DNA of 64,000 nucleotides, taken from assembly GCA_965202585.1 (NCBI GenBank), contig CBDBBG010000273.1:1-64000 (forward strand), written 5' to 3'. The translations under genes were made by a program, and so were the position numbers. This stretch comes from Thalia democratica (Eukaryota). The notes beneath the pieces were generated by a model that had not been told where the DNA came from, did no database searches, and was given only the letters and a program-made list of their open reading frames with translations. Positions within the stretch are counted from its first letter, which is position 1, and every line of letters starts with the position of its first letter. This document shows, one piece after another, positions 2,616 to 64,000 of the stretch.

Positions 2616-5600
2616 GTCAGTTTTTTTATTAAACTTAGTGTTTTGATAATATGAGCTTTGTAATGATTAAGATTTATACAGGTTTTTAATCCACTAAAAA
2701 GTTTCTGAAACTATTTGCGTTTAATAAATTTAATTTAATTTTAACTTTTGTAAGTGACTCAGCTTTCTATCCTTATAAATAAATTTAGTTTGTATATATT
2801 TGTACAAAATGCTACTTAGTACGCAATATCAAATAATTACTAACAAATTTAATTCCATAATTAAGTTAATATATACTTAAAGTTTTATGTATGAATTATG
2901 TTCTTACTACAATTGAACTTTAAGTAAAAAATCCTAGTTTTCATAGTTATGATTATTTAGTGTATAAACTAATTTATAATTATATATTCATAATTATACA
3001 GCAGTTACGATGTTTAGTCTGAAAGTTATTGCTAAAAAACATCGAGTATGAATATGAGGCCAACTATATAGTTTTAGCTCGATATTGGTACGAATTTATG
3101 CTGGGTATTTAACAATAATTGTTTTCTTTACATTTGTATAAGACTTATTTTTCAAGATGACTGTTTAAAACATACCTTTTCTATAAATCGATCCTTGCAC
3201 TATTAAAACATCATGTCAGAACAAAACAATTGTGCTATTTAATCAACTAAATATTACTAACTAATTCTTATTGGGTCTATCAAATGTTGTACAAATTCGT
3301 CAATCTTTCTAAAGTATTAAATTTATCTATGATTAGTGTATATACATTACAGTGACCTCTCGCAAATTTACGAATACTGTGCCTACAAAAAAAAGTGTAG
3401 TTAAACGAAAGAACGTAATTTAACGACAGGTGCAATGTAATTTTAAAACCAAAACAAGTGAATATTTGCAAGATTATGCATTTTTACAAAAGTAAATGTT
3501 GTTTATAGCATTATTTTGTTAATTCAAAACATACATTACAATAAATTATTGGTAGATAAACTTCAAATTGTATATATTTTTGTGTTTTTTTGTAGATTTG
3601 TGAGAGATTATTGATTTATTCAGTGTTTTAACAAGTTGTTGCTTATCTAAGTGTAAGTTTGTTATTGAAAATTTCACACAAATAATAATTCAATAGATAT
3701 CGTTCACCAAAAATTTAGGAACAACTAATACAATTAACAAGCGGTAACATTTATCTTATTGAAAATATGCTAATAAGAACAGCAACATGAAATAAATATT
3801 TTTTAGACGAATAAATGCTCACACACTTTCGCTTGGAACAAGATACAAATCAAAACTGTTCAAAATTCTTCTTATTGGAAGGATCGTTTCAACTGCCAAC
3901 TAGGTCAGTTTTCTTATTAGTTTTAGTGTATTAATAATATGAGCTTTGTATTGCTTAAGACTTATACTGGTTTTTATTTCACTAAAAAGTTTCTAAAACC
4001 ATTTGCTTTAAATAACTTATTTTATATTTTATAAGTAACTCAGCTTTCTATCCTAATAAATAGATTTAAAATGTATATAAATTTGTACAACATTCTACTT
4101 GGTATATAATATCGAATAATTACAAACAAGTTTAAGTCCATAATAAAGCGATTATATACTTAAAATGTGAACTATAAGTAGGCTTATCAAATGTTAACAA
4201 AATTTTAATAATCTACTTATGTATAGTCATTTTGTAGAAATATTTCAGTATAAACCATTAAACAGCAGTTTTTTTTACTGCCAATTTTCTCAGTAAATTA
4301 TAAATTGACTACAAATATTTTTTTTTATTTTTACAATTAAGAGTAAATATCGATTGATTTATAAAGTGATCCTTGCACTATTAAAACAACCTGTCAGATT
4401 AAAAAAAGCTAATTGATCAATTAATTATTCTAATTAATTTTTTTCAAGTCCATAAATGTTGTAGAAATGCAACAAACTTTTTGAAGTATTAAAAATATCT
4501 TTGATTAGTGTATATGTATTACAGTGACCTCTCGCGAATTTACGCACTATGTGCTCACAGCAAAAACTGCGTAGTTAAACGAGAGATCGTAATTTACCGA
4601 GAGGTGCATTACAAAGTTGAAAGATTGAATATTTGCAAGAATATGCATTTTTACAATCCACTATTTTAATTTAAAGTATTATGTTGTTAATTCAAGACAT
4701 ACAATAAATTTATTTCTACAATACTAAAAAAACTTTAAATTATATGTATGTGTTTTGAGAGTTCTAACAAACGTTACCAAACGATAGTGGGTAGATTTGT
4801 GAGAGGTTATTGTATTTAAACAGTGTTCTAACAAGTTGTTGCTTATCTAAGTATAAATCTGTTATTGAAAAATTTCATACGAAATAAAATTCAATACATA
4901 TTGTTCATAAAAAGTTGAGGAACAAGTAATAAAATTACTAAGTGGTAACGTTTATATGAACTAAAATATGTTAATAAGAACAGCAACAATAAATAAATAA
5001 TTTTTTAGACGGTTAAATGCTCACACACTTATGCTTGGAACAAGATACAGCTCACAACTGTACAAAGTTATTCTGTCCTTATTTGAAGGATCGTTTCAAC
5101 TGCCAACTAGGTCAGTTTTCTTATTAGTTTTAGTGTATTAATAATATGAGCTTTGTATTGCTTTAGGTTTATAAGAGTTTTTATTCCACTAAAAAGTTTC
5201 TAAAACTATTTGCGTTTAATAATTTATTTTATATTTTGTAAGTAACTCAGCTTTCTATCCTAATGAATAGATTTAAAATGTGTATATATTTGTACAAAAT
5301 TGTACTTGGTATGTAATATCAAATAATTACAAACAAGTTTAAGTTCATAATAAAGCAATTATTTACTCAGAATGTGAATTATAAGTAGGCTTATCAAATG
5401 TTACGATAATTTTAATAATCTATTTATGTATAGGTATTTGTAAAAACGAAATACATTGTTTTGCAAAAGTTGAAATAGGCTGTAAATAAAAGCTTTGAAT
5501 GTAAACTAGAAGTAAAATTTCAAATAATATAAAATATTTGGTCATCTGTTTATGAAAAGTCAATTAGTGAAAAATTTTCAGCATAAACCTATGGAATGCA

Positions 5601-7370
5601 ATTGTTTTGTTGTCAATTTTCTCAGTAATTTGTTTAAAAGTAAATACCAATTTTTTTTTATAAAATAGTCCTTGCACTATTAACACAACGTGTCAGAACA
5701 AATTGAAACGATTATGCTAATTACACTCACCTCCCGCGAATCTACGCACATTGTGTCCACAGCGAAAGTGTGTAACTAAACAAGAGGTAGTAAATATACC
5801 TTCTATATCGGTTGTTTTTTTATATTTGATTAAATACAGTTTTTGGACTTTACCGCTTTTATTGTTCGCAGAAATAAGTTTCATTCAAGTTCTAATTGTG
5901 GAAAAGTTTTGAATAAAAATTTTTATCTGTTGAGAAAAAATATATTTTATACCTTGAATAAATATTGTTCTATAATACCACTCAAGATAAGTTTAATTTT
6001 AGGTGGGCTTACAAAAAATATGCTTAAAATAAAAGATTTATTGCCTTGAAATGAAACTTTATGCCATAAATATTGTGGGCAAACAATGTACTTTGTTTGA
6101 ATTGTAGGTATGAAGGGGGCTAAAAAACCTAAAGTTTAAAAAACAAAGCCGTACAGTTTAAGAGGTTTTTTATCGAAGGCACTAACTAAAATTGCAAATT
6201 CATTATTTAATAAAAAATATATCTTCTATATTTATCCAAATATAAATTTGAATTATTTACGAAATATTTTAAACTATATTTTTTATTCTGTGAGAATTCT
6301 AAAATGCTAAACGGTAATGGGTGACCAAATGAGCGCTTAGATTTGTGAGAGATGACTGTAGTCCATTATTACTAATTACTTTAGTTGTGTCCATCAAAGT
6401 TGACACAAATGTTGTACAAATGCGTCGCTTACCTTTTCTCTTTTTTATATGAGTTTAGTAAAAAGGTAGTGACTAACTTTATTTAGTTTTAGAAATATAT
6501 TTTATAATGTTTTTGTAAAGTATGTCATTTGCAAACTTTTGAAAGAACTTAATTTATCCATGACTATCGTATACACATTACATAGACCTTTCGCGTATTT
6601 ACGCACAGTGTGCTCACAGCAAAAAGTGCGTAATTAAACGAGAAAACGTAATTTAACGAGAGGTGCATTACAAAGTTGAAACGAAAACGACTGAATATTT
6701 GCAAGAATATGCATTTTTACAACCCAACATTTTATTTTAAAGCATTTTGTTGTTAATTTAAAACATGCAATAAATTTATTGGTACAATATTAAAAAAGCT
6801 TTAAATTATAAATATTTATTTTAAGAGTTCTAACAAACGTAACTAAACGAGAGTGGGTAGATTTGTGAGAGGTTATTGTATTTAAACAGTGTTCTAACAA
6901 GTTGTTGCTTCTTTAAGTATAAGTTTGTTATTGAAAAATTTAATACAAAATAAAAATTCAATAGATATCGTTCACCAAAAATTAAGTAACAAAGTTACTA
7001 AGTGGTAATATTTATATAAAATAAAATATGTTAATAAGAACAGCAACATTAAATAAATAATTCTTTAGACGGATAGATGCTCACACACTTATGCTTGGAA
7101 CAAGAAACAATTTACAACTGTTCAAAAGTATTCTGTTCTTATTGGAAGGATTGTTTCAACTGCAAACTAAGTCAGTTTATTTATTAGTTTTAGTATTTTA
7201 ATATTAAGATATTGCTTTAGATTTATAAGAGTTTTTATTCCACTAAGAAAGTTTCTAAAGCTATTTGCCTTAAATAATTTTTTTTATCTTTTGTAACTAA
7301 CTCAGCTTTCTATCTCAATAAATTGATTTAAACTATGTATATATGTGTACAAAATGCTACTAAATATGTT

Positions 7371-7500
7371 GGGTAGCTGTAAAATTAGCTCAAATTTACG
7401 AAATTGCACAAGGGCACAAAATTGCACGAAGACACTTTTGCACGAGGTGACATAAAACTACACGAAGAAACTTTTGCACGACGGTACATTTTTGCAACAA
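7371..7500. mobile_element. Truncated insertion with (t)tgcacga subrepeats; also at +22619 and +45238
   Basis: Starts gggtagctg, several ttgcacga/ttgcaca motifs, flanked by duplicated tgtacaaaatgctactaa (7346-7363, 7530-7547). Confidence 0.5.
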
Positions 7501-8706
7501 CATACATTTTAGCATGTAAAATATATATTTGTACAAAATGCTACTAATTATGTTATCACAATTGATTACGACCAAATTTATGTCAGTAAGGTTTAAATCA
7601 AAAGTTTTATTTTTACTGAAACTATTCATAATCTGAACATTTTTTCGATTAAGTTTAGTTCAAATAAAGTATACATTTGTAAAATTGTTCACAATCTTTT
7701 ATATTTAACGAATCACTTACACATAGTATATCTCCTTACTTATTTTGCTCATGATAGCTAAAATCGTCTCGAGGGGATATATTGTTCAACTTCGGGAAAC
7801 CTTGATGTATATAATTGATTATACAGAGTTATAATAAACTGTTAATTCATTTTTTCTAGTAAAATTGATATAAAGTAGACTGAAGTCAATTGAATACACT
7901 AAGTAATGAAGGTAAGCTTTATAACCTTTTGTAACTGATTCAGTTTTCTGCCTTAATAAAAAGATTAAGACATTTTCAATTTATATATATTTCTACAAAA
8001 TACCATTCAGTATGTAAAACTAAATAATTACGAACTAATGCAAGCCAGTAAGAATTAAAACACAAACTTAAAAAAAATTAGTTAGTTGAAAACAACTAGT
8101 ATTAAAATAAAAGATAAACTAGTGTAACAAGTTATTAAATCAAGAAAACGTATATATTTTAATGTAGATAATGATTGTAATAATAATTTTAAGTCGGAGC
8201 TATTGTTACCAATTATTCGATATGTACCAGCAATTGACGTTACTTTTAGTTTTATTCTGCTAAAGTGCTTAATTTTATAAATATTTTATTCTATATGTTT
8301 GAAATAAGCGATGGTTTACTTCTAATTAAACAAATATGTCTGCTAAATATTTATAAAACTTCTTTTACTACTAGCTACTCTTGATTAATTAATTTCAGCA
8401 CAAATGTTGTACAGGTTTGTCAAATAATAATTTTTTGTTTGAATTCGGTATTGTTACCAGATATTTTTTTTGCAGTCAACACACATAGTTATTATTAAAA
8501 TTTACATCCATCGGTTCTATAGGGTCTATGTCATAGGTAGGCAGATTTTTATAAGTCGTGTCTTTCAATAATAGTTTGCTCGCGTGCCACACTTTTGAGA
8601 AAAAAATCGCAGTTATATTAAATAAATGTTTTATTTAGTGAAATTTAAACTAAAACCTTGATAATTTACCATAATCAATAGCAATTAGTAAATACATAGC
8701 CTAATT

Positions 8707-19520: not shown

Positions 19521-20459
19521 CTAAAACAACTTCTTGCAGAACTATTTTATAGAGTATTTTTTTTAATACGTTAGTCTTTGTATTATATGAAACATCACAA
19601 AAAGAAAAATGATGCAGTAAAAAAGGCTAATTGAAAATAATTAGCCTACAAAATATTTCATTTTTATTCTTTCTACTTAAACTAGCTACTTCAAAGCTAG
19701 TTGTTATTATAAGATTTTTTTTTTCAGGCTTTTTGCTAACAATTTTAAATCATACAACTCTTAAGCTCGCCGTTTAAGTTTAAGTTTTTCAAAAATTTAA
19801 ATTTAATAATAAAGAAACCTATTCAAGGGTTAAATTTTATTGTATTTATAAAATGTTTTGCAATCTAAGAAACTGAAATTCAACTATTCTCAACAAATTG
19901 AATTATCTAAGTAAAGTTTTGCAATAAGTCCTGGACAAGAAAATAACAGGTATCCAAGTGGTGTGCGACTCGATTACCGAAAGGTTCTTCGTGCACCAGG
20001 TCCTAGGATTAAGCTTTTTAGCGATTATTTTTTGTAGTTCAATAAATAATATGTATTATTATTGTTTATCGAAAAATAGAAAAAGCAACTTTTTTTGAAA
20101 AAAATAATATAGATTTTCTTTATAAATTAAATTAAGTAAAGTATAAGTTTAAAAAAGGTCATTACTTAATCAAATATGATAGTTAGCTTTAAATGTACTG
20201 TTTTTTTTTACTTTTATGTCGTAGTATTCATTAAATTCTAATTTAAGTTTGTTGCCTTACATATTATTTAATTTTTTATAACTCAACTTACAAAACAAAA
20301 CTATAATTATTTTTGTTAGTACAAAATTAAACTTTTAAGCCTTGTACTAAACTAATAATAAATTTGAAAAACACTTTTGCTTATTTAACTTTTCGCCCAT
20401 GATGTTGTAAAGATATTTAATAAACAAAAATAAAACCCACAGTGCTGTAAAATTTTCAG

Positions 20460-43200: not shown

Positions 43201-46200
43201 ATCATATTTTCACATATAGGCCTTATTGTTCTTAACAAAAATATCATAAGAGTTGCCACACAGTCAGACTAGTTTAAATTTAAGAAAACACAGACATGAT
43301 TAAAGTTTTTTTTTAAAGTCAGACCTTTTTAAATTTTATATTCTTATTATTAGGCTGTTTTCTTTACATTAAAATTAATTTATTTTATCTTAATTATTCA
43401 AATATATCTTAACTTAAGCCATTCTAATGGTTTTTGAAAATATTCAAGCTTGATTAATGTATATTCTGGAGTCCAGATATAACCTGGAATTCAAAAATTA
43501 AGGAAAATATGATCTAGAATTAAATATATTTTTCTTTAAACCTGGAAATGTAAACAAAAATCTTGTTATTAACCAATATTTAAATAAAATTTTAATGAAA
43601 TTTAGTAAAAAAATGAAATCTAGATAAGTTAGAAGGTAATTATAATGCAAAATTATTTTATAAATTAGTTAGATAATTTTTTAAAAGGAATTACAGTACC
43701 TTTCCGGTTATTCTATGCTATATCTAGCAACAAAACTTGTTTTCCAAAAAACTGAAAGAAAATAAAAAATCAGAACTTTTTGTTTTTTAACCAGTGCATT
43801 AAAAGCATGATTTATTATTTTTTCAAATTTTAAATACTCATAATAAAATCAGGCTGCAATAAATTCATATGGATTTTAAATAAAATTTCTCAAACTGTTC
43901 AAAACTATTTTGATGGCTTTGGTTGCAAACATTAAAAATAAAAATAAATTTAAGGTTGCCACACACTTATGCTCAGGATATTTTTGAGTTTTTGAAAATC
44001 TCAGGATAACTGGATTTTATTAATTTATTTATATAACAGTTTTGTGTTTTTTATAATAGACTTAAGATAGTTCAAATAGAAAAAAAATCAGGACAGATTA
44101 AGTTGATCTTGTTTAATAATTGCTATTTTCAGTATAACTAGTTTTCTTCAAGAACTTGATTTTTATTGATTTTGAAATGCTTGTTTTAGTTTCCTGCTGG
44201 CTTTTCAATACTTTTAGAAATATCATTGTGTTTGTGCTACAGCAAAAAACACTTTTAAGGATTTTAAAAAATCAGTAAAGCTCAGAATAGCTTAAGGTCA
44301 CTTAGTACAGTTTTTTGACTCAAAGATTGGCAACCCTGTAAGTTTAAGTACCATGTGTTTGATAATACTTAATAATACTTATTTACCGTATACATTACAA
44401 AGTTTTAGTTTACTTTAATTTCAATTACTATAATTTACAAAGTGACAAGTTCAACATAGGGCGCCTATTTTACTTGATAAATCTGAATTTTGACAAACTC
44501 TCATGAGTTAAAATAATAAGTTCTGAGTTGAACAAAAATAGTTAAGTAATTACATAGCATGATGTTCACCAATATCGAAATTACATCATATTTAATATCT
44601 ATTGTCACCATAGTTTTATGCTAAAAATCAATGTTTAAAGCCTAGTATGTTTAATCTAAAGAGATACTTTGTTTTAAACTAGCTTTACAAATAGATAAAT
44701 AAAATTAAATTTGTTTAATAATTAAGTTTTCATTTTCTAGATTTGTAGTAATATAAATTATTCTAAAATGAAAGTGATTAAATATTCAAGTTTTATTGAA
44801 TTATGATTTATAAATTAGATTTTATTATATGTGTTTATAAATTGTTGTTTTTGTCTCAAATTATTGTTAAACTAGACCTCAAATAAAATAAAGTTTCAGT
44901 TTGATATTGGTGTACATCATGCTTTTTTTTTTTTTTATGGTAAAAAAACATCAGTCTCAAACTCTACCCCTTGCAACGATAAACGTTTTCTGGGGGTAAT
45001 TATCAATATTTGTGATATGTAAATTAAAATTATTGTTATTTAAAGCTATAACTATTTTATTATATATTAAAAGTATCATATTAATATCTTTTAAGTGATA
45101 AAATAAACATTTTTTGTCTTAGATTTTAATTTTAACTAAAAAAGGACAATTAAGCTTGAGCTTAAAAAAACCTGGACGAAAATTAGAAAACTTGGAAAAA
45201 ATATCTTATATACCAGTGGCCACTCTTTTAATAACATACTACCTGAAGTTAAATTTAAATCATTAGTTTTGTTGTTTTGTTTAATTAACTTTTTTTCAGT
45301 TTAATAGGATTTTACACTAATAAGTTGTATTATAAATAAATTAATAATAAAACTGCTGCAGATTAACTGTACTGATATAATTTATTGTATATTAATAATT
45401 TAAAGTACATGTAGTGCTGAAATAATTATATTTTTAAAAGAAATGTTTCAGCAGTATTTATATTTACGTAATGGTTATAACTGTACAAATATATGAAAAA
45501 AAAATTAAACTGATAAATGTACTTATTACATAAAGTTTTGATATTATGCTCAATATATAAATGGTTACATAAAACTAATGTACTTTATGAAGTTATTGTT
45601 GATTTATACATTTGGCTTAACAGTATTTCTGGGGGTGCACAACTATTCAAAATCTGATAATTCAAATTCTTAAAAAAAAAAGTTGAAAAGGAAACAACTA
45701 AAAAAGTAATGTATATATGGAAATTAAAAAAAAATATTTAGATCCTATTAGTATCTACAATCCGTTTTTTTCTTTTTGCAAAACATAAAATATTTTTTGA
45801 GATGGGGCTTAAAAAAAGTAAAAAACTTATTTAATTTTAATAATTTTAAAACATCTTAAAATTTTTTTAAGGTTTTGCGAAAAAGAAAAAGCAGCTTGTA
45901 GATATTGATACAATCTACATTTGTATTTTTTATTTTTTTCAAATTTATAATACTTTTTAAGATATAGTCTTTTAAATATTTTTATAGGAATTTGAATTGT
46001 TAAAGTTTGACTTGCTTAAATTTGAATTGTCATTGAATTTGAATATGGCTAGTACTTTTCACCTTTTTTTTAAGTTTAAAGTTACATTGGATATGTTACA
46101 GACTAGGTTTGAGTGTTTAACAATTTGCTTATGGTAGGAGCAAACTAAAATTTAAAGGTTAAAAGCAACTTGTAGCGCCTGCTTTTAAACTTTCTAACAG

Positions 46201-49200
46201 GAGCTAATGTTAAACTTTTTAATGAAATATTATTAAAATTGATTTTATCTACCTAGGTTCTAGTTTTAAATTATATAAAAAAGAAAGAATCACCGTATTT
46301 GTACTAGTTATAAAATTATATACAAAACTTTTAAATGAATGTCGTTAAAAGTGTAACCATTGGAGACTTTATATCATTCACAATATTTTGAATTTTTTTT
46401 TTTAAATACAGTTATAACTACTGTTATTGGCACAGTTTATTCCAACATTGCTTTACAAAGATTAAAATAGGCTCTTAAATGAAAGTTTAGAATGTGAACT
46501 ATTAGTAAGTTTTAAAATAATATAAAAGTTATATTCGTCTTTTATTTATAGCCACTTTGTAATAACGTTTCAGTATAAACCATTGGACAGCATTTTTTTA
46601 ACTGTCAATTTTATCTTAATTATTTAACTTAATTACAAATCTTTTCAAATTTAAAAGTACATACCAATTTTTTATAAAATGATCCTTGCACTATTAAAGC
46701 AACCTGTCAGAACAAAATAATTATGCTAATTAATTCATTATTCTATTTAATTTTAATTGGGTCCATCATTGTTGACACAATGTTGATACAAATGCGTAAA
46801 TTTTCCAAAATATTAAATATACTTATAGTTAGTGTATATACACTACAGTGACCTCTCTCTACGCACAGTTTTCCCACAGCAAAAGTGCGTAGTTACACAA
46901 GAGAACATAATTTAAAAAGAGGTGCATTACAAAGTTGAACAAAATCAACTGAATATTTGCAAGAACATGCATTTTTACAAAAGTACATTTTAATTTAAAG
47001 TATTATGTTGTTAATTGAAAAAATACAATAAATTTATTGCTTCAGTAGTAAAAAAGGGTGCACGACTATTCAAATTTGGACTATTCAAATTCCGACAATT
47101 TAAATTCTTAATAAAAAATTGTAAAGGCTATAAGTAAAAAAATAAGATATATTTGTCAAAAATAAAAAATATAAATGTAGGTTACATAAATATCCACAAG
47201 ACATTTTTTATATTCTGCAATAAACTTAGTATTTTTTGAGATATGGCTCGAGTAAATCAAAAAACATAGTTATTTTAGTAAATTTATGAAATCTTTGAAA
47301 TGTTTTAGATTTTGCAAAAAAGAAAGCTTGTAAATATTAACAAGATCTAAATATGCATTTTTTATTTTTTTCAAATTTATTTTACTTTATGAGATATAGT
47401 CTTTTTAGTAGTTTTTTAAGAACTTGAGTTGTCAAAATTTGAGTTGTCCGAGTTTGAATTGTAATTTAACCAGTAAAAAATATTTAAATTATAAATATTT
47501 TTTTTGAGAGTTCTAACAAACGTAACCAAACGAGAGTGGGTAGATTTGTGAGAGGTTATTGTATTTAAACAGAGTTCTAACAAGTTGTTGCTTATTTAAG
47601 TATAAGTTTGTTATTGAAAAATTTCATACAAAATAAAGTTCAATAGATTTCGTTCACCAAAAATTATAAAAAAAAAAGTTACTAAGCAGTAGAATTTATC
47701 TATTTGAAAATATGCTAATAAAAATAGAAACATTTAATAAGTATTTTTTAGACGGATAAATGCTCACACACTTTCGCTTGGAACAAGATACAAATCAAAA
47801 CTTTACAAAAGTATTCTGCCCTTATTGGAAGGATTGTTTCAACTGCCAACTAAGTCAGTTTTTTTATTAAACTTAGTGTTTTGATAATATGAGCTTTGTA
47901 ATGATTAAGATTTATACAGGTTTTTAATCCACTAAAAAGTTTCTGAAACTATTTGCGTTTAATAAATTTAATTTAATTTTAACTTTTGTAAGTGACTCAG
48001 CTTTCTATCCTTATAAATAAATTTAGTTTGTATATATTTGTACAAAATGCTACTTAGTACGCAATATCAAATAATTACTAACAAATTTAATTCCATAATT
48101 AAGTTAATATATACTTAAAGTTTTATGTATGAATTATGTTCTTACTACAATTGAACTTTAAGTAAAAAATCCTAGTTTTCATAGTTATGATTATTTAGTG
48201 TATAAACTAATTTATAATTATATATTCATAATTATACAGCAGTTACGATGTTTAGTCTGAAAGTTATTGCTAAAAAACATCGAGTATGAATATGAGGCCA
48301 ACTATATAGTTTTAGCTCGATATTGGTACGAATTTATGCTGGGTATTTAACAATAATTGTTTTCTTTACATTTGTATAAGACTTATTTTTCAAGATGACT
48401 GTTTAAAACATACCTTTTCTATAAATCGATCCTTGCACTATTAAAACATCATGTCAGAACAAAACAATTGTGCTATTTAATCAACTAAATATTACTAACT
48501 AATTCTTATTGGGTCTATCAAATGTTGTACAAATTCGTCAATCTTTCTAAAGTATTAAATTTATCTATGATTAGTGTATATACATTACAGTGACCTCTCG
48601 CAAATTTACGAATACTGTGCCTACAAAAAAAAGTGTAGTTAAACGAAAGAACGTAATTTAACGACAGGTGCAATGTAATTTTAAAACCAAAACAAGTGAA
48701 TATTTGCAAGATTATGCATTTTTACAAAAGTAAATGTTGTTTATAGCATTATTTTGTTAATTCAAAACATACATTACAATAAATTATTGGTAGATAAACT
48801 TCAAATTGTATATATTTTTGTGTTTTTTTGTAGATTTGTGAGAGATTATTGATTTATTCAGTGTTTTAACAAGTTGTTGCTTATCTAAGTGTAAGTTTGT
48901 TATTGAAAATTTCACACAAATAATAATTCAATAGATATCGTTCACCAAAAATTTAGGAACAACTAATACAATTAACAAGCGGTAACATTTATCTTATTGA
49001 AAATATGCTAATAAGAACAGCAACATGAAATAAATATTTTTTAGACGAATAAATGCTCACACACTTTCGCTTGGAACAAGATACAAATCAAAACTGTTCA
49101 AAATTCTTCTTATTGGAAGGATCGTTTCAACTGCCAACTAGGTCAGTTTTCTTATTAGTTTTAGTGTATTAATAATATGAGCTTTGTATTGCTTAAGACT

Positions 49201-52200
49201 TATACTGGTTTTTATTTCACTAAAAAGTTTCTAAAACCATTTGCTTTAAATAACTTATTTTATATTTTATAAGTAACTCAGCTTTCTATCCTAATAAATA
49301 GATTTAAAATGTATATAAATTTGTACAACATTCTACTTGGTATATAATATCGAATAATTACAAACAAGTTTAAGTCCATAATAAAGCGATTATATACTTA
49401 AAATGTGAACTATAAGTAGGCTTATCAAATGTTAACAAAATTTTAATAATCTACTTATGTATAGTCATTTTGTAGAAATATTTCAGTATAAACCATTAAA
49501 CAGCAGTTTTTTTTACTGCCAATTTTCTCAGTAAATTATAAATTGACTACAAATATTTTTTTTTATTTTTACAATTAAGAGTAAATATCGATTGATTTAT
49601 AAAGTGATCCTTGCACTATTAAAACAACCTGTCAGATTAAAAAAAGCTAATTGATCAATTAATTATTCTAATTAATTTTTTTCAAGTCCATAAATGTTGT
49701 AGAAATGCAACAAACTTTTTGAAGTATTAAAAATATCTTTGATTAGTGTATATGTATTACAGTGACCTCTCGCGAATTTACGCACTATGTGCTCACAGCA
49801 AAAACTGCGTAGTTAAACGAGAGATCGTAATTTACCGAGAGGTGCATTACAAAGTTGAAAGATTGAATATTTGCAAGAATATGCATTTTTACAATCCACT
49901 ATTTTAATTTAAAGTATTATGTTGTTAATTCAAGACATACAATAAATTTATTTCTACAATACTAAAAAAACTTTAAATTATATGTATGTGTTTTGAGAGT
50001 TCTAACAAACGTTACCAAACGATAGTGGGTAGATTTGTGAGAGGTTATTGTATTTAAACAGTGTTCTAACAAGTTGTTGCTTATCTAAGTATAAATCTGT
50101 TATTGAAAAATTTCATACGAAATAAAATTCAATACATATTGTTCATAAAAAGTTGAGGAACAAGTAATAAAATTACTAAGTGGTAACGTTTATATGAACT
50201 AAAATATGTTAATAAGAACAGCAACAATAAATAAATAATTTTTTAGACGGTTAAATGCTCACACACTTATGCTTGGAACAAGATACAGCTCACAACTGTA
50301 CAAAGTTATTCTGTCCTTATTTGAAGGATCGTTTCAACTGCCAACTAGGTCAGTTTTCTTATTAGTTTTAGTGTATTAATAATATGAGCTTTGTATTGCT
50401 TTAGGTTTATAAGAGTTTTTATTCCACTAAAAAGTTTCTAAAACTATTTGCGTTTAATAATTTATTTTATATTTTGTAAGTAACTCAGCTTTCTATCCTA
50501 ATGAATAGATTTAAAATGTGTATATATTTGTACAAAATTGTACTTGGTATGTAATATCAAATAATTACAAACAAGTTTAAGTTCATAATAAAGCAATTAT
50601 TTACTCAGAATGTGAATTATAAGTAGGCTTATCAAATGTTACGATAATTTTAATAATCTATTTATGTATAGGTATTTGTAAAAACGAAATACATTGTTTT
50701 GCAAAAGTTGAAATAGGCTGTAAATAAAAGCTTTGAATGTAAACTAGAAGTAAAATTTCAAATAATATAAAATATTTGGTCATCTGTTTATGAAAAGTCA
50801 ATTAGTGAAAAATTTTCAGCATAAACCTATGGAATGCAATTGTTTTGTTGTCAATTTTCTCAGTAATTTGTTTAAAAGTAAATACCAATTTTTTTTTATA
50901 AAATAGTCCTTGCACTATTAACACAACGTGTCAGAACAAATTGAAACGATTATGCTAATTACACTCACCTCCCGCGAATCTACGCACATTGTGTCCACAG
51001 CGAAAGTGTGTAACTAAACAAGAGGTAGTAAATATACCTTCTATATCGGTTGTTTTTTTATATTTGATTAAATACAGTTTTTGGACTTTACCGCTTTTAT
51101 TGTTCGCAGAAATAAGTTTCATTCAAGTTCTAATTGTGGAAAAGTTTTGAATAAAAATTTTTATCTGTTGAGAAAAAATATATTTTATACCTTGAATAAA
51201 TATTGTTCTATAATACCACTCAAGATAAGTTTAATTTTAGGTGGGCTTACAAAAAATATGCTTAAAATAAAAGATTTATTGCCTTGAAATGAAACTTTAT
51301 GCCATAAATATTGTGGGCAAACAATGTACTTTGTTTGAATTGTAGGTATGAAGGGGGCTAAAAAACCTAAAGTTTAAAAAACAAAGCCGTACAGTTTAAG
51401 AGGTTTTTTATCGAAGGCACTAACTAAAATTGCAAATTCATTATTTAATAAAAAATATATCTTCTATATTTATCCAAATATAAATTTGAATTATTTACGA
51501 AATATTTTAAACTATATTTTTTATTCTGTGAGAATTCTAAAATGCTAAACGGTAATGGGTGACCAAATGAGCGCTTAGATTTGTGAGAGATGACTGTAGT
51601 CCATTATTACTAATTACTTTAGTTGTGTCCATCAAAGTTGACACAAATGTTGTACAAATGCGTCGCTTACCTTTTCTCTTTTTTATATGAGTTTAGTAAA
51701 AAGGTAGTGACTAACTTTATTTAGTTTTAGAAATATATTTTATAATGTTTTTGTAAAGTATGTCATTTGCAAACTTTTGAAAGAACTTAATTTATCCATG
51801 ACTATCGTATACACATTACATAGACCTTTCGCGTATTTACGCACAGTGTGCTCACAGCAAAAAGTGCGTAATTAAACGAGAAAACGTAATTTAACGAGAG
51901 GTGCATTACAAAGTTGAAACGAAAACGACTGAATATTTGCAAGAATATGCATTTTTACAACCCAACATTTTATTTTAAAGCATTTTGTTGTTAATTTAAA
52001 ACATGCAATAAATTTATTGGTACAATATTAAAAAAGCTTTAAATTATAAATATTTATTTTAAGAGTTCTAACAAACGTAACTAAACGAGAGTGGGTAGAT
52101 TTGTGAGAGGTTATTGTATTTAAACAGTGTTCTAACAAGTTGTTGCTTCTTTAAGTATAAGTTTGTTATTGAAAAATTTAATACAAAATAAAAATTCAAT

Positions 52201-53944
52201 AGATATCGTTCACCAAAAATTAAGTAACAAAGTTACTAAGTGGTAATATTTATATAAAATAAAATATGTTAATAAGAACAGCAACATTAAATAAATAATT
52301 CTTTAGACGGATAGATGCTCACACACTTATGCTTGGAACAAGAAACAATTTACAACTGTTCAAAAGTATTCTGTTCTTATTGGAAGGATTGTTTCAACTG
52401 CAAACTAAGTCAGTTTATTTATTAGTTTTAGTATTTTAATATTAAGATATTGCTTTAGATTTATAAGAGTTTTTATTCCACTAAGAAAGTTTCTAAAGCT
52501 ATTTGCCTTAAATAATTTTTTTTATCTTTTGTAACTAACTCAGCTTTCTATCTCAATAAATTGATTTAAACTATGTATATATGTGTACAAAATGCTACTA
52601 AATATGTTGGGTAGCTGTAAAATTAGCTCAAATTTACGAAATTGCACAAGGGCACAAAATTGCACGAAGACACTTTTGCACGAGGTGACATAAAACTACA
52701 CGAAGAAACTTTTGCACGACGGTACATTTTTGCAACAACATACATTTTAGCATGTAAAATATATATTTGTACAAAATGCTACTAATTATGTTATCACAAT
52801 TGATTACGACCAAATTTATGTCAGTAAGGTTTAAATCAAAAGTTTTATTTTTACTGAAACTATTCATAATCTGAACATTTTTTCGATTAAGTTTAGTTCA
52901 AATAAAGTATACATTTGTAAAATTGTTCACAATCTTTTATATTTAACGAATCACTTACACATAGTATATCTCCTTACTTATTTTGCTCATGATAGCTAAA
53001 ATCGTCTCGAGGGGATATATTGTTCAACTTCGGGAAACCTTGATGTATATAATTGATTATACAGAGTTATAATAAACTGTTAATTCATTTTTTCTAGTAA
53101 AATTGATATAAAGTAGACTGAAGTCAATTGAATACACTAAGTAATGAAGGTAAGCTTTATAACCTTTTGTAACTGATTCAGTTTTCTGCCTTAATAAAAA
53201 GATTAAGACATTTTCAATTTATATATATTTCTACAAAATACCATTCAGTATGTAAAACTAAATAATTACGAACTAATGCAAGCCAGTAAGAATTAAAACA
53301 CAAACTTAAAAAAAATTAGTTAGTTGAAAACAACTAGTATTAAAATAAAAGATAAACTAGTGTAACAAGTTATTAAATCAAGAAAACGTATATATTTTAA
53401 TGTAGATAATGATTGTAATAATAATTTTAAGTCGGAGCTATTGTTACCAATTATTCGATATGTACCAGCAATTGACGTTACTTTTAGTTTTATTCTGCTA
53501 AAGTGCTTAATTTTATAAATATTTTATTCTATATGTTTGAAATAAGCGATGGTTTACTTCTAATTAAACAAATATGTCTGCTAAATATTTATAAAACTTC
53601 TTTTACTACTAGCTACTCTTGATTAATTAATTTCAGCACAAATGTTGTACAGGTTTGTCAAATAATAATTTTTTGTTTGAATTCGGTATTGTTACCAGAT
53701 ATTTTTTTTGCAGTCAACACACATAGTTATTATTAAAATTTACATCCATCGGTTCTATAGGGTCTATGTCATAGGTAGGCAGATTTTTATAAGTCGTGTC
53801 TTTCAATAATAGTTTGCTCGCGTGCCACACTTTTGAGAAAAAAATCGCAGTTATATTAAATAAATGTTTTATTTAGTGAAATTTAAACTAAAACCTTGAT
53901 AATTTACCATAATCAATAGCAATTAGTAAATACATAGCCTAATT

Positions 53945-54119
53945 CAGTGCTTCTGAAATGGGGTTCCGCGGAACCCTAGGGTTCCGCGAAGCCTTTCGAA
54001 ATTAAAAAAAAAATATTTATTCAATTAAACATTTTATGTAGAATTAAAATTAGGGGTTCCGCGGAAAAATTGAATTTTGGAAAAGGGTTCCGCCACTAGA
54101 AAAAGGTTCAGAAGCACTG
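53945..54119. mobile_element. hAT MITE, copy 3
   Basis: Same TIRs and gcctaatt TSD as 8707-8881. Confidence 0.92.
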
Positions 54120-56753
54120 GCCTAATTGTAGCTTAGCCTCAAATTTTATTACTTTTTATAAATATTTTTTGTTAGCTAATCGCGTATCGCAGTTAACTGT
54201 CCCCAGTTTGCCCTGGTATATGTGAATAAAATAAAACCATGTTTATATTGTGCGCATAAAAGTCTTTTATATTAACTTACAAATCAACTCAGTTTTTTAT
54301 TTAATCAATCAAGTACTTTTTATTTAATGTCGTCACTGCTGTACAATTCATTCCTAATTTAAAACTCACAATTTTAGTCAGTAAGGCAGGATTGTTCCAT
54401 TGTTTTACTGGGATGATTTTATTTTTTGAAGTATCACTATTGTTCTTTATTTAATATTAATTGATCTTCGTTGTCAATTGACTGTTAACGCAGCGGTTTT
54501 CAAATATTTCAAAAACTGTCCACAGCAAATTACTGAATACAAGTTCTGCGCATTCTAAACTATTGTATACATTTTTACTACTAATACTTTTGTTATTATG
54601 AATTAATTTTGAAGGATAAAGTAAAATTTGTTTTACAAAATCAATTAACTGCGTAGTGATTTTAATAATAAATTTTACAACTCATTGTTATTTCCGTGCA
54701 CACTGAATATTTTTTTTTTTGAGAAACACTTTTTTACTCTGACTGTGAAGTTTAGCTAAATCATTATGCAGAAATAGTTTCTTTGTTCTACGAATTTTAC
54801 TATGAAAAGAATTAATTTCTTAAAATCTTAGATAAAAAAACGAAGTATATTGTATATGATGAACATTAAGTTTAGTTTGACTTTCAATAACAAATTTAAT
54901 ACTTGAAGTGTTTTTATTTTCTTTGCTTCAACCTTTGCAACTTATCAGTTCTATCTTAACATGCTCACCAATAAAAGTTTTTTTTTAATAAGTACAATGT
55001 TTCAAAAAAAAGCTTACTTTAACTCACTGTGACCCTTAAACGACTTTTTATTTTTTAGTAAAGATTATGTCTCTTCTGATCCGTACTAGAAGCTGTTGTT
55101 ATACAATACAAAAAGTAAACATAAATAACAATTTTAATATGTAATATAAGTATTAAAATCAGTTTTCATACAAAATCTATTGTTTCAATAACAACTCATA
55201 CTGATTATAAAATATTATTTGTTTTTATATTTATTATTATCTGGTTACAATATATAACTGTCGATTCCTTTATTCAGTAAGCGCTTTTGATTTTCAATTT
55301 TTTTTTAAACTATATTACATCAATCATTATGTGTGTATACAAAAGTAAATGTTTATAAAATTATTTTGTAACTATAAGCTAACTGTTTAGTTTGGATATA
55401 AAAGCATACTTAACACCTGGGTTTTTACTAAACTAGGAAAAATAAAATCCGGGATTTAAAAAAAAAAAACTATAATTTAAAAAAAACCTTGTGTTCAATA
55501 TATGCTTGTCAATTAAAAGTTATCAAAAATTTGTCTAAATGAAAATTTTAAAACGTATGAATTAATTTTGGCATTCTGAAACATTATTAATATCATACAA
55601 CAGAAAAATAAGATTTTGTACTAAAGGTGTTGTAAATTTTTAATATTTTAGTGAAAACTAAGTCAACTGTTAAACCTTAGTTGAGTTTAGTATCCTTAAT
55701 AACTTTTGATAAAAACATAGACTTAAGAATTTAGCTTTCTTTTGCATATTTTAAAATGAATTGATATAGACATTTTATAACTTGGGTACTTTACACATAG
55801 TGAAAAGATTGCTAAGTTATCTAAATATGTAAATGCTTATGTATAATATGAATAAGTTATAAATAACTAACAACTTTAGTACTTAACTGTTGATAAAAAA
55901 GACATTCAATTTTTCTAGCATTCTTAAGGTTTTTTTTTTAAGAAATGAAATTATCAAGAATATTTATATTACAATATCTTTTGTATTTCACAAAAAAAAT
56001 CCAACTCGATTTTAAATGAAGTATTTTATTATCTCCTTTAATAGAAAAGAAAGTATAATATTTTGTGTTTAGAACGCTAGTTTTGAAATCATCATTTGAA
56101 AAGAGTAATACATTAGTGAAAAGTTATAAATATACTTAATTTTTGATCTTCATATTACATTAAATGCAATTCAAAGTATTGAAAAGTTATAAATTAAAAA
56201 TAAGTCAAGTATTGTAAATAAAAAATAATTAAACTAATTTATCAACTAAAACAAATTATGATAAGAACAAGTTTCGAGTTTTGTTAAACTTTTTTAACAA
56301 TTTTCGATTTATTTCCCTTGTCACAAATATCATAGTTTTAGTTTTATCTTATATTAGTAAAAAAAATATAGTTATTATAAGTATAAACTATAGTTATTAA
56401 AAGCATAAACTAATATTTACATAGGCTATTTATAACATTAAGAGCTTAACAAAAGAATTTGTCATTTGAAAACCCCAGGTGAACTTAATTGTATATTTAA
56501 GAAATAATCTTTTAATTATCAAACTTATAACTTATAATAAAAAAATTAACACTACTTAAGTTAATATATTCAGGCGACTATCAATCAGTTTTCGGTTAGG
56601 GGATTTTTTTTGGTTCATTGAACAGAAAATTGGTAAAAAAAAGGTGCTCACCTTTCGGCGGCACCTTCAAGAAGTTTGAAACTTGAAAAAAAATATATTC
56701 ATAAAAATAATAAGTGGAATGATAAAAATACAGCTACAAACGACAAAAAAAAA

Positions 56754-57739
56754 TGACTCTCTTGAGGTAGCTAATTTGTAAAAAATTGGTAAAAAAAAAG
56801 ACGCTCATCTTACGATGAACGTCTTTCAAAAAAAAATATGGAAGAAAAAGTTGGAAAAAATTCGAGCAAAAAAGGCCCCAATTTCGCCCGCGGGCGAAAT
56901 TGGGGCCGTTTTTGCTCGAATTTTTTCCAACTTTTTCTTCCATACTCTACCAATCCTTCACTTTCCATTCAAAATTCAATTCTCACAACTTTTCGAAAAA
57001 ACTCCCCCTCCCTTAATTTGAAAATATTTTTTCAAAGCTTCTGCTTACACCGCAAAATGCTTTTTATCAGCTCTGATCGTGACGGCGACTGCGAGATGCA
57101 GCCGCTTCTCTGCCCGTCACATTTTGAGTGCTTCACCTTTCGCCCCTGCATTTTCTTCCGCCTTCTCTGCTTCAGTCGCCCGCTTGAAGCTTCTATAAAT
57201 GCACGGCTTTAATCACTTCATTTCTGCACTCGTTCTTTTAACTGGGCTGAATCATCTCAGAGCTTTATGCTTACTTCTATGGCTGCTTTCGGACGGTACT
57301 TGCCTTTATTCTTGCTCTAATTTCCCTCCCTACACATACAATCGGGTCTGCTATGCGACCTTAACTGCTGCGCTCTTTCGATGCCAGCTTAAGTCGACGG
57401 CCAGTCGACTCAAGCTATAACCAATCCCTGCCTGCATTAACAACCAAACCGCCTTGACGACTTCACGTCTACCCGCCTCGACGCCAGTCGACTCAAGCTA
57501 TTACCAATCCCTGCCTGCATTAACAACCAACCCGCCTTGACGACTTCACGTCTACCCGCCTCTACGGCCAGGCATTTCCTCGTTAAAAGCCTACAACGCT
57601 TTGCATTATAAAATCCCTAAGCGTCAAGTCGACCGAACGCACGAAAGCGTATCTCTTACTAGTGTAACATTAAGCATACGCGTATGATGCCGAAATGCTC
57701 TTGTTGGAAATATTCTACTAGGCTACCTCAAGAGAGTCA
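56754..57739. mobile_element. 18-bp-TIR element, copy 3 (palindrome variant)
   Basis: Same TIRs; four differences near the palindrome. Confidence 0.7.
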
Positions 57740-60263
57740 AACTTTCACCTTTACTCAACTTTTTTTCATTACATGTACTTCTTTATACCTATATAAAATT
57801 TGTTTAGTCTTATAAAATTTTTGCCAAACACTTTAGAGACACCGATAAGGTACGCACTTTAAAAGGTACGCACTTGAGTAAAATTAAGTTTCAAATAAAG
57901 TGTACATCACCTCTTAACATTTTACCAGCAGTCTAACAGATTGTAAGGTTATCATACCTCTTTATAACAATTATTCTGATAAAAACTGTACTTTGAGCTA
58001 AATTGTTTGTTTATTACATAAGTATGCTGTATAATTGTAACGGTATACTATTAATTTCTTGTTTATTTTTGCTAACTAGTTTTTATTTTCTCACAACCAA
58101 ACAAACGATAGTGGCAAACTTGCTGTGAAAATATCCAACATTCATCTGAGCACATAGCAGTCAAGTTTTACCTGCAACATGCACATTATTTCACGCAATT
58201 TAAATCCATGGTGATTGGAAACAAGAGCAGGAGAAACTCACATGTCAAAGCTGCATACAAGACTTTTGAGCTAAGTATATTTGAAGGTAAAATATATACA
58301 ACATTTACAAACATGTACTTTAAAAGCTATTTGAGAAACCTACTAACTTGTATTAGTTTTTAGATAAGTGAATTTAAAAAAATGTATTATGTTTAAGGCT
58401 TTTTATATCAAATCAATTACAAACTGGTATTATTTTTTTCAAGGCAAAACTTAATAGATAAATAGTAATAATGTAATATTTAAACAATATTTAACTCTTT
58501 AAACAATTTTTATGACTATATTAAATTTTCACTAGCATTTGTTTTTGTATATTATATGACTATATAAAAGTTTGTTTTAAAGTACTAGTACACAAACAGT
58601 TGTTGAGCCTGATACGTTACAACAAGCTGTTTGGATTCATAGATTTGAATTAAAATGCGATATCATTTTTTCGAATAAGCACATTCCTAGTATAATTCAA
58701 GTTTTTATGACATATTAATTTACTATTAAATCTTAAACAATTATTTTGTAGGCTTAGAGTTTTTGGATAAACACAATTGTTTGTTAATACTTTGTTTCTC
58801 ATCTTACTAAGTAGAAACCAATTTATAGTTTAAGCTGTCAATGAACTGTATGCTTCAAAAAACACTAGGTGGTACTTTCAATAACTGTTAAATATATTCT
58901 GTTAAAATGTACTTTATATTTGTTTGTCAGTAATGCCAGTTTGTATCCTGCTTAACATAACTGATGTTAAACAACATTTACCACAAAAACAAACATCACA
59001 CATACAGAAAAGCTTTTGTATTCTACTACGATTGTTCATACCTTTGTTACTGAGAAAAGTGAAAAAGTCTTACAGTATTTTTTTCTGAAATAGCTTTATT
59101 TTGAAAAATGTACTACTAGTAAATAAATATGTTGTTAAGTTAATTGTTACATTAATACAGTATATAAAATGTAGTTGTTAAGCTGTAAGAGTTTGAAAAA
59201 CTATAACAAAAAATGTTATGTCAGACAATTAAAAAAAATTAGTAGACATCAAGATAGTAAGTACTTAATTTTTTTTAAACTTAATCTTGACCATTCTGTT
59301 TTTTTAACTATATTGCTATTAATACATCCATTTCGTATTTAGACATTATTTCCTTTCTTTACAGTTTTTCATTGTTAAAAATTGCAATTCTAAATCAAAA
59401 AATTAAAATAAAGGGCTTTAATGTTTTCGGATATATTGTTGATTTCGTCAATACTTTTATATTTACTAATGAATTTAATTAAACAAATATTTTAAACTGT
59501 TGTTAGTTTTTACAGATATTATAATATCTAATCGTTTTTAAGTATACGATAGAAAAGGTTTGAGTTTTATTTATTAAACTAATTAATTTTTAAATATACA
59601 ATAAATATTTCATGATTTTCCTTATTTAACTTAATATATTAGATAAGATTTATATTCTTTTCAACCACCATTAGTAACTTAAAATAAAACAAACATTGAA
59701 AGTTTTGACTAATTTATTCTCGCAACAAATAACAACTTAAAAATCTAAAACGCTAAGTTTCAAAGCAATAAATTTTCAAATTGTACTTTATTCAAGTTTT
59801 AAAAACTATTTTTATAATTAAAAGCTACAAAATTTTCTATATGGGAACTTTTCTTTGAGGTTTAGCCGGAACAAAAAGGTTTTAAGTTTTATTAATTTGA
59901 AAAATAGTTAAATATAAGAATTAAATAACGCCTAAAAGTTTAAAACTTTGTGCCTTTAACTTACAGAAACTTAAGAAAGAAATATTTAATAACTGGATAA
60001 ATCGGTAAAAAAGAAGAAAAATTCAAAAACAATACGTATTCAAACTAAACTAACAAATATATTTTAATCTTTAACCACCAGAACTACAAACAACAAAAAC
60101 TAAATTCATTAAATACTTTGTTCTTACGATATGTCAGAAATAGAATACTTTTTCGGAATATATAAAATATTTCTTCATGCATAGAAAGTGAAAAGTCAAC
60201 AAAAGGGGAAATTCCCCGAGTCGAAAGTGGCGGTATTGTACTAAGCAGGGATAAATACGGGAT

Positions 60264-62818
60264 TCAAGAGTGGTGGAGCTTGTGGGGGCAGTGGGACCCT
60301 TTTTTGATTCTTCCGTCGCAGCACACAGATATCGAGGGGTCGTACACGTGCAATCCTCCGCAGCAAGCCTGAAAAATGAAAAGAATAAATATTAATACTT
60401 GAGAAAAATGGATATTGCATAAAATTTATTTTAATTGATGTTTGCAAAAATAAATGTATTTCGGCTTTGTTATATGTAACAATATGTCAAATTTTACAAT
60501 ACTTGACCAAATAGTCATAAAAATTAAAATATCGATAAAACCAGTTTTTATGCATTTCAGCTAGAATAAAACAAATTGTAACCCTCCACAACAGACATGA
60601 AAACAGTTTAGAGATCTAAATAAAAAATACTTGTAAAATTAAGCAACATATTGATTTTTTTTAGGTTTAAAATATTTTTGAACTTTAAACAAAACTAAAA
60701 TTTTTAACAGCATTACCTAATTTTTAAAGGTTGGTACAAGTAAATTAACCATCTTAGTTTATAACATATACTTAATTGTCTTTATTTCTTTAGAAAAGAC
60801 ACATTGTAATAAATTTCATGGTTTTATTATTAATCAAGCCCTAATCAGCTTAAATTATATTAATTGTACATTTTTTATTGAACACTGTTTTTGTAATTAC
60901 GTTTAATTTTTTTTGTGTGCTGCGGGTTTTAAATAAAACAAACAAAGATTAATTAAATAAGAAAGACCTCTCCTCTTTACTTTGTTACATAAACACATAC
61001 ATTATTATGATCAGGTAATTTGTTTTTAACCTCAGACAAAAACCTTTAAGCTAAAAATCGTCTTTTGAACAAAAAAAAAATCAGATAAAAGCATTTAAAG
61101 AACAATTGCTTATGTCTGGTCTATACAAATGTTTATTTAAATACCAAAAAAATAATTGCTTAGCAGAAATTATGGTGAAGATAAAGATCTATCACGTGCT
61201 TTTGTTGTTAAATATCAAATTATAAATTGACTGATTACATTGTTAATTTCACTAGTTTAATATATTGTTCTGATAAATTATTTCAATTTATGTGTTAGAC
61301 TATAGTAGTAACTAAGAAACAAATAGTTTTAAATTTTTTTCATTAACAAAACAAAGTATGTGTTTAAAAACCAAGTATACTATTTGTTTGACTCAACAAA
61401 AATTTATAATTTCTGATTTAATATTTTCGATTATTTTTACGATACGTAAAAAAGAAATAAAGAAATTCAATAACATTTAGTTTTTAATTTTAAGTAAGTT
61501 GTTTATATTCTTTATAGTTGTATGATGGCTAAACAAGTCCTAATTTTTTACTACATACCAAATGTTTAGAGTTAAATGGTATTATCCATCTTTTTTTTGG
61601 GAAATCAATAAAGAAATAAAAAATTTCTATCAAAGTCAACAGTTTCCTTAAATAATGCACATTACAATAAACAAATTATACCGTTATTTTGAAATTGAGT
61701 TTATTTTTTGAAACTTTTGATTGGAATTAACTTTGACATGATAAGTTTTTCTGCAATATTTGCTACTTTTTGCAGTTTATTATTATTTTTACAACCAAAA
61801 ACTGTTATATTTACTCACTTTTTTAGAACTTGCGTAAGGAACTCCGTTGCAACCTCCGCAACAGGCATCAGGTCTCAGGCTCATGAGGGAAATTCCCTTT
61901 TTACATTTCTTTCCCGACCCCTCGCGGAAGAAACATATGCACTGCTGCAAGCACTTGTCTGTGTTTTCTATAGATAAAAAGTCAAATATTATTTAATTCC
62001 AATTATATAAAGTTTTTTTTTTCAGTAAATAAAACAAGAAAAAAGTTTAGTTATATATTTAGATTTTCAAAATCATAACGTTTGTAATTCTGTAAGAAAT
62101 TTAACTTAATTGAAAAACATAACTATTTTTCATCAGACTTATTTCATTTATTTTGCATTTGTTTACTACTAGTTTAGTTTCTATTGTATAAAACTAATAC
62201 AAACCTTCAACATTGATGGAATCGGTTTTAAATATTTCCTTCTCGCTGCTCAACAACGTTTTAAGTTGTCCCTGCAATTCTTCAGCTTGTAACTCCCTGT
62301 TGGCGTATGTTGGTGAGAACAATGAGTACTTAACTGTGTATTCATTCTCTTCTTCTACTGCTTCCGATCTGTATGAGAGAATGAATATTAGTGTTTAGGG
62401 ATGATTTATTAGAAATTTATACAACTATTAGAGTTAAATATAAACTTATAATGTTTCTTGTGAAAAATTGGAGTCGATATAGATTTATTAGCACTTATAA
62501 AAAGTATAAGAAATGTAAAAAAAATATGTAAATTAAAAAAAATATATGTAACAAGCTTAAGTAGTAGTTGCTTTAGAAGGCTTCATACAAAGGTTTTAAT
62601 ACTATAAATAAGCTCTTAGTTAAAATAGTTTTGTAAAGTTTTACGTTGCAAATCCATCAAAACACCAGCACTAAAAAACAACTTTATTGCTTAAACTCAA
62701 TATTTTTGGTTTATAAAACATTTAAACTAAAAATAACTAACGAGATTCCGTTCTTTTTGACATCTTCAATTTCTACAACTATATCTGTCACTCCGGAGTT
62801 AGTCAAAACTTTCAATAT
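60264..62818 (-). CDS. SEA-like/galaxin-repeat gene 3' exons, copy 3
   Basis: Exons 62818-62742, 62368-62205, 61967-61819, 60368-60264; same as copy 1. Confidence 0.85.
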
Positions 62819-64000
62819 CTGCAAAACATAGTTAAATTTTAACTTTTTATCTATTTTACCTATTTAATCTAAAAACCTAATATCTATTTACAAATATTGA
62901 CGGTTGAAAGGTTAACAGCTGCACAAAGTGTTTTTTAAGTGATTAACATTCTAATAAATCTCATGAATGGTCAATGGAAGCTTTATCAAATGTCACAATT
63001 TACATCAAAGGTCACTAAAGGGCTTTTTATTTAATCGGATTTTTGAGCGAGATCGCCTGAAAGGTCTGTCTAATCTCCTTTTTATTGAGAATTGGCAGTA
63101 AAGTTTGTCGTCGTTAGTGTTTTGATTAGTAGTTCGTAGAAAAACGAGCTAAATTAGAAAAATAAATTGTAAAAATTAAGTTTGAGTCACCACAGGGAAA
63201 CTAGTTTCAATTACAACACAATATGAAATAGTAAAGAAACACTGTTGACAATAGATAATGAAATCTTTTTTTTCTTAATGTACCTAAAGTTTATGAACTA
63301 ATGTACAAGGTATGCTAGATATTTTCGTAAAACTTTATGTTTTTGAACTAGTGTTTGTTTTGTCAACTGATATTTTTATGTATGTGATGACAAAAATAAC
63401 TTATTGTGTACATTTGAAACAAGTATTGCAAAATTTTTGATTAAAGTCTTCTTTAAACAGTTTTAAAGTTCAAAGAAAAAAAACTTATGAAAGCTTATTT
63501 TGTCCATAAGTCTCAGTAAAAACAAAAACTTTATCTGCCTAGCATTGATTTATTAATAACTATTAAAAAAAAGTTGTAAAACTTGAGAACAAGATTTCTT
63601 CTGTTGTGTTTATAAGTTATTTATTCAAATAAAGATGTTAAAATTAAATATTTTATTTACAACCAGGTTTTGGTGACAAAATTTGCGACCTTTTCAAGTG
63701 AAATAAAATAGTTTTAGTTTAGATATTTTAGTGAAGACAAATAACTGTAAAGTTATTTATTCAAAAAGGCCGTCTAATGCAAAATAAAATATGTCAAGTA
63801 AAGTAAATTTATTAACACTGTAACTATTTTAAACTGTTAAAATGAAATATTACTAACAACATTACTTGAAAAAACCTTATACAATACATTATTTATAACA
63901 TGTAGCTTTAAATAACTCTGTAAAATAATAAAAAAATGATTGATTGTAACCGAACACGTCAAATAAATCACAAGCACTAAAGTTTCTTGTTTTCGTAACT

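Follow-up and report, generated by a model that had tools for sequence, protein, structure and literature searches.

A mirror-image palindrome core in a tandem array of Thalia democratica, probably made by a single template switch in a likely rDNA-derived element

Yeast HOT1 is composed of an rDNA promoter plus an enhancer, and the flip/flop hairpins of parvoviruses are mirror-image isomers of an imperfect palindrome. Polymerase I transcription at HOT1 drives recombination between the repeats that flank it, as described in the available part of PMC4470286. Yeast REG2 shows the inversion plus arm conversion reported below, brought about by an inter-strand template switch (PMC8604942), and the same pattern appears in Fig. 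1F of PMC8794818; in the accessible portions of these two sources one intermolecular switch at REG2 or SYG1 inverts the core and homogenizes the arms, and repeated switches keep the stems perfect. Dispersed repeats carrying pieces of rDNA and tracking the host sequence are represented by Cassandra, SINE3, SINE28 and Pokey/mPok (PMC10946416 and PMC3849761, each in the part available). The element described here resembles them in these respects and differs in what is carried, the rDNA-derived mobile elements listed in the available part of PMC10946416, a 2024 review, having 5S (polymerase III) promoters, 28S fragments or spacer repeats, with no element combining a 45S start region and terminators in its table as available. 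Helitron2/HINE elements have hairpins, short internal tandem repeats, a short inverted pair in some copies and tandem arrays, all with counterparts here (PMC11417382, in the part available). The present element shares with HOT1 the occurrence of rDNA control sequences outside the rDNA (PMC4470286, same portion), whereas HOT1 was placed experimentally and this element is natural, has at least 179 copies and combines a structured 0.7-kb body with a long palindrome, its function being predicted. It is not a parvoviral end and not a true rDNA unit, and it lacks a Helitron2 feature, short terminal inverted repeats in every copy. Literature searches, at the level of listings, returned no described element of this kind; the flip behaves like known template switching, in an element whose make-up resembles that of HOT1.

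The window, the whole 64,000-nt stretch analyzed, is the start of a contig (C282) in the AT-rich 802-Mb genome assembly and comprises 2.83 copies, arranged head to tail, of a 22,619-bp (~22.6-kb) unit, the first at 1-22620, the second at 22621-45239 and the third, strand-neutral, at 45240-64000 within the window, with the contig end at 67,857. C282 contains exactly three units and a second contig, C1351, exactly one, and both contigs are self-closing; they are therefore assembler circles of a collapsed array sited in a gap on the chromosome-scale contig C4, where a 24.9-kb sister unit adjoins the gap. The last array unit after the C4 gap carries the five changes of copy 3 described below, and between unit positions 3,555 and 16,747 it shows no other difference from copy 2; copy 3 and this unit may be one physical unit. 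The longest open reading frame of the unit has 143 amino acids. Each unit also contains four or five degenerate 1.2-kb repeats (window 900-8500), which are common to arrays on C6, C7, C253 and C538 and gave no family match, and a small dispersed repeat is present as two inverted copies at window 393-800 and 1810-2230 with 15-bp tandem units at its ends.

Full comparison of the copies gives six differences in the window. Position 1701 accounts for one, and the other five occur in copy 3 alone, confined to 145 bp; under a uniform model the chance of five changes falling within 145 of 13,193 bp is ~7e-8. Three of the five lie in a loop-less 108-bp palindrome with two 54-bp arms, placed in copy 3 at 56837-56944 and strand-neutral. 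In copies 1 and 2 an inner mismatch pairs a left-arm C with a right-arm T (11636/11671 and 34255/34290), and copy 3 is the mirror image with A at 56873 and G at 56908. This inverted core, claimed by an earlier sequence-only reading, is confirmed base by base in the assembly. The outer G/T mismatch, which that reading took to be repaired, is indeed lost in copy 3, where the T of copies 1 and 2 (11703 and 34322) is replaced by C at 56940 on the plus strand. The two further changes it placed within about 40 bp upstream are C to A at 56798 and one A fewer at the end of the adjoining A-run (~56836-56837), and the single difference it saw elsewhere is the one at 1701. The right arm of copy 3 is thus the left arm of copies 1 and 2, and its inner left arm is their right arm. 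The C-bearing core occurs at six sites in the assembly, with the C in the left arm at four (unflipped) and in the right arm at two (flipped). Both mismatches of copies 1 and 2 are derived, because the palindrome of the sister 24.9-kb unit is perfect. The A at 56798 extends and perfects the stem of an adjacent short hairpin and is also the state of more distant, older paralogs.

Patterns matching the exact palindrome center hit 34 and 72 sites in the assembly, and the 86 sites with arms of at least 30 bp were examined after two further short matches were dropped. Sixty-eight of these palindromes are perfect, 14 have a substitution mismatch and four differ by an indel only, the perfect ones comprising 25 distinct arm types with a mean identity of 85% and a minimum of 63%. 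When 14 subfamily copies are compared, 27 of 53 palindrome pairs have changed at both partner bases and no pair at a single partner, whereas in the two short hairpins 8 of 27 pairs vary at one partner alone. Two-sided change with no one-sided change therefore points to copying between the arms at the DNA level, and such arm-to-arm copying is pervasive in the family. Head-to-head giant palindromes are found at 0 of the 86 sites, and one family copy (C6:26,924,028) lacks its right arm, lost from the center.

The flip is best explained, with a probability well above even, by a single template switch that acted on the copy-1/2 sequence within an rDNA-derived unit whose terminator-type hairpin has overgrown into the palindrome. 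When one segment of copy 1 is replaced by its mirror, 160 choices of the two switch points produce copy 3, and no choice works in the reverse direction. Copies 1 and 2 are likely the parent form and copy 3 the derived one, the reverse being impossible by one switch. After base 5-36 of the left arm the polymerase would abandon its template, copy the opposite strand through the palindrome center and return after base 104-108, which would invert the core and overwrite the outer mismatch in one go. Repeated switches between arms would likewise keep every palindrome of the family symmetric, and the flip would be a by-product, not a regulated isomer. Template switching was among the options of the sequence-only reading, and a single inter-strand switch reproduces copy 3 exactly for the three palindrome changes, the other two of the five (56798 and the A-run) falling outside it. 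A conversion tract from an unseen unit could possibly have supplied the A at 56798, since that base is the state of more distant paralogs. The flip is likely one complex one-off replication event and not a standing hot spot, because the five changes are so tightly clustered and the differences of sister units are only scattered. The flip requires inverted copying between arms, which a template switch explains exactly. Relative to REG2 and SYG1 as described in the available parts of PMC8604942 and PMC8794818, the arms here are 54 bp long without a spacer, the palindrome belongs to a multicopy element and the inversion is visible only through the internal mismatch.

The strongest alternative keeps the same element and changes the route, the core being inverted by extrusion of a cruciform or single-strand hairpin followed by mismatch repair, or by inverted ectopic conversion between units, in which the left arm of one unit serves as donor for the right arm of a different unit, perhaps by way of an unseen paralog. 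This route is improbable. The perfected neighboring hairpin in copy 3 and the A at 56798 in older paralogs are both consistent with it, as is the C6:26,924,028 copy, in which loss of an arm from the center is typical of palindrome breakage. It needs at least two steps, however, where one switch is enough, and at all flanking sites diagnostic against the sister unit copy 3 has the copy-1/2 alleles, with no donor of the copy-3 haplotype among the 86 sites.

A consensus or polishing artefact, in which bases were exchanged because reads had been assigned to the wrong arm, is given a low probability; public contigs do not phase the arms, the inner site lying more than one word length away from unique sequence. 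Palindromes are prone to mis-mapping, the collapsed array was assembled as self-closing contigs and the two flipped sites are perhaps a single physical unit, all of which would suit an error of this kind. Against it, copies 2 and 3 differ despite more than 10 kb of identical context, the five-change haplotype occurs in two contigs and is tied to the unique edge of the array, and two of the changes fall outside the palindrome.

Comparably slight is the chance of an enzymatic flip-flop at the nicking or replication site of an element, of rolling-circle or Helitron2 type, that would also build the arrays, a class of explanation that takes in parvovirus-like terminal resolution, a protelomerase or a recombinase site. 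The palindrome is loop-less and conserved in length, the arrays are head-to-tail, and in some subfamilies an inverted 18-nt pair surrounds the palindrome, with the left member in either or both orientations, features that such an enzyme would account for. In place of the two standing isomers of parvoviral hairpins, the survey of other genomic copies proposed by the sequence-only reading yields a reciprocal pair in this array alone, at one of the 86 palindromes, and the palindromes of sister arrays are unchanged; its suggestion of an actively isomerizing nicking or replication site is therefore not upheld. Extended head-to-head junctions are likewise found at none of the 86 sites, where the arms measure 52-61 bp. 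Its parvoviral comparison fares no better, the site being internal to head-to-tail units and not terminal, with no Rep-type family or NS1 among the frames scanned. The unit contains no Rep or recombinase open reading frame, nor do 45 open reading frames of other arrays, a scan of 7 plus 25 of the 88 frames detected no Rep/NS1 family in cis, and a genome-wide search for the Helitron Rep family (RepHel partner), run without a positive control, found none. The arrays both begin and end with the host segment and not with the element, and, in contrast to Helitron2/HINE as described in the available part of PMC11417382, the inverted pair is a copy of 28S that is direct, doubled or absent in other subfamilies. 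That two point mutations arose independently at mirror positions beside the A-run is very improbable: homopolymer edges often mutate and three other copies are mismatched at nearby positions, but the uniform model gives an independent mirror mutation ~0.3% and the five-change cluster is left unexplained. A mutation hot spot in the palindrome was also considered and rejected, four sister-unit comparisons giving 2-8 scattered differences each and none in the palindrome, after a misaligned fifth had been dropped.

The unit in which the proposed template switch took place is a 1-kb element that, judged by its sequence, is likely a miniature RNA polymerase I unit with one terminator-type hairpin overgrown into the palindrome. 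A segment at 57622-57706 on the minus strand, 82% identical to the rDNA 442-526 nt upstream of 18S, is the likely core promoter and start for RNA polymerase I. The matching rDNA segment sits where AT-rich spacer gives way to GC-rich leader before 18S and is identical in three rDNA units, and a homolog is present in 16 of the 16 element copies tested (79-88% over 54-93 bp, profile E 2e-21). The shared segment is the likely promoter, and its position would put the start near 57660. A CTAG near 57660 was considered as a Helitron 3' end and rejected, as it lies inside the rDNA-homologous segment. From about 57660, minus-strand transcription would run through a putative non-coding body (56945-57621, minus strand) to the hairpins and U-tracts near 56800. 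The body is ~70-80% conserved between subfamilies, against ~40% outside it, and does not significantly match either the rRNA genes or the ETS; an 83-bp tandem repeat of variable copy number within it (57394-57571, minus strand) has a weak, non-significant likeness to the 5' ETS.

Downstream on the minus strand, a GNRA-loop hairpin with a T-tract at 56791-56826 resembles the hairpin just after 28S, and a second hairpin followed by a T-tract, a terminator-like repeat by sequence and fold, lies at 56641-56667. These hairpin/T-tract repeats match the post-28S region with an E of 2e-7, a composition-biased value (bias 21 on a score of 18). They have the same order and strand as in rDNA, the palindrome and repeats being placed ~700-850 nt downstream of the start segment, and by eye in alignments the minus-strand distal arm of the palindrome resembles the T-tract plus spacer of the adjacent hairpin repeats. 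Among 30 variants of the short hairpins on the minus strand, two of which are other hairpins caught by the pattern, 26 have GNRA loops, and G-U pairs outnumber A-C by 52 to 6. A conserved body hairpin at 57386-57416, minus strand, shows the same G-U-tolerant variation (13 versus 1). The G-U bias would mark selection on a minus-strand RNA, the variants sharing ancestry so that the counts are not independent. Rfam has no family at gathering score in the unit, where 18S, 5.8S and 28S genes are not encountered, and microRNA-type matches below the cut-off were set aside as reflecting the hairpin only. Neither an LTR nor a poly(A) tail was found in the element, nor a transposase or a sharp terminus.

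The tips of the element are copies of 28S rRNA sequence. The left tip (56754-56771, plus strand) is an 18-19-nt copy from the Pokey/R2 target region whose orientation varies by subfamily, and the right tip (57721-57739, minus strand), in rRNA sense, lies just upstream of the promoter homolog; both match the 28S of this genome exactly and are absent from its real rDNA spacer. The 28S region fits the target-site base preferences of Pokey, and R2 and R5 insert nearby (PMC3849761, in the part available), the Pokey target TTAA reading TTGA in the 28S of this genome (C141, C520). The left motif is inverted, direct, doubled or absent depending on the subfamily. The 18-nt inverted pair was considered as transposon ends and rejected, being 28S sequence of varying orientation that also lies inside an unrelated dispersed element. 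That element has CACAGTG ends, is present in 94 exact copies with the same 28S motif ~190 bp inside the element end (L083-L089) and is taken to be Transib-like. The 28S 18-mer occurs 623 times in the assembly and tracks the variant of the host. The left motif of some copies forms a 37-bp palindrome of its own (L067:5160-5200 and 5440-5480; L068:5768-5803), and other copies retain just one half, in either orientation. In the 15.8-kb rDNA unit the spacer houses two 5S genes together with U2 and U5 snRNA genes (L168:7461-7579; L169:435-553, 2281-2395 and 2477-2672).

The element is associated with gene arrays. A promoter-segment pattern has 179 exact matches in the genome, i.e. at least 179 element copies, and among the first 100 matches listed 85 lie no more than 60 kb from another, the gaps having a median of 29 kb. 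Of the 30 loci that these matches form, 15 are clusters with a spacing of 14-59 kb, the other half being single. The CACAGTG-ended element served as control, five of its 94 sites on small contigs being dropped, and has a neighbor within 60 kb at 7 of 89 sites, with clusters at 3 of 85 loci. The excess of clusters is significant (Fisher p 3e-8, or 5e-6 with looser joining), and since the rarely clustered control carries the 28S motif, that motif alone does not make arrays. In the three arrays inspected a host segment is followed by repeats of element plus host segment, a layout expected from recombination between repeats flanking a hot spot, as at yeast HOT1 in the available part of PMC4470286. 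The cargo differs between arrays. In the window a putative gene with spliced Cys-rich exons at 60267-62863, minus strand, has a weak galaxin-repeat match below the cut-off and is found only in this array; a scan of 45 of 66 frames from other arrays revealed BACK-Kelch or CUB frames. A role of the element as promoter for its cargo genes is not supported, as the cargo is on the same strand here and on the opposite strand for the Kelch and CUB frames.

The association suggests that the element may help to amplify the arrays, and preferential insertion of the element into amplifying regions fits as well. By analogy, and on a weaker footing, transcription next to a cruciform-prone palindrome might form a hot spot that seeds tandem arrays of neighboring genes. 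Taken further, hundreds of natural HOT1-like modules, miniature polymerase I units excised from the rDNA control region with a self-perfecting palindrome, would have spread through the genome and would amplify and homogenize any neighboring gene in the manner of rDNA, building tandem arrays of 17-35 kb with Kelch, CUB, galaxin-like and other genes as cargo; this is offered tentatively. Its corollary, that the flip is a fresh footprint of replication stress at the module, is similarly doubtful. In animals polymerase I is not known to serve much beyond the rDNA. If the elements are transcribed, they would amount to a large family of polymerase I genes outside the ribosomal set, with a perfect hairpin RNA of 54 bp as product. 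If they cause the arrays, they would be a portable gene-amplification device, and a comparison of loci that have the module with loci that lack it would make the in-place expansion of some gene families testable. The flip illustrates a known mutation process cleanly and in nature, and the element matters more.

Further features accompany the arrays. Orientation switches in blocks at C1:93.2-93.42 Mb and C2:92.58-94.0 Mb, with breakpoints that are not at the examined palindromes. The C7 and C253 arrays contain repeated open frames of 180-380 amino acids with no Pfam match (L051:2842-6018; L055, L057). A 130-bp dispersed repeat lies at window 19920-20057, near the end of the host segment of the array, and the left edge of the C4 array holds a LINE with a 992-amino acid open frame encoding an endonuclease and a reverse transcriptase (L033:5053-8028).
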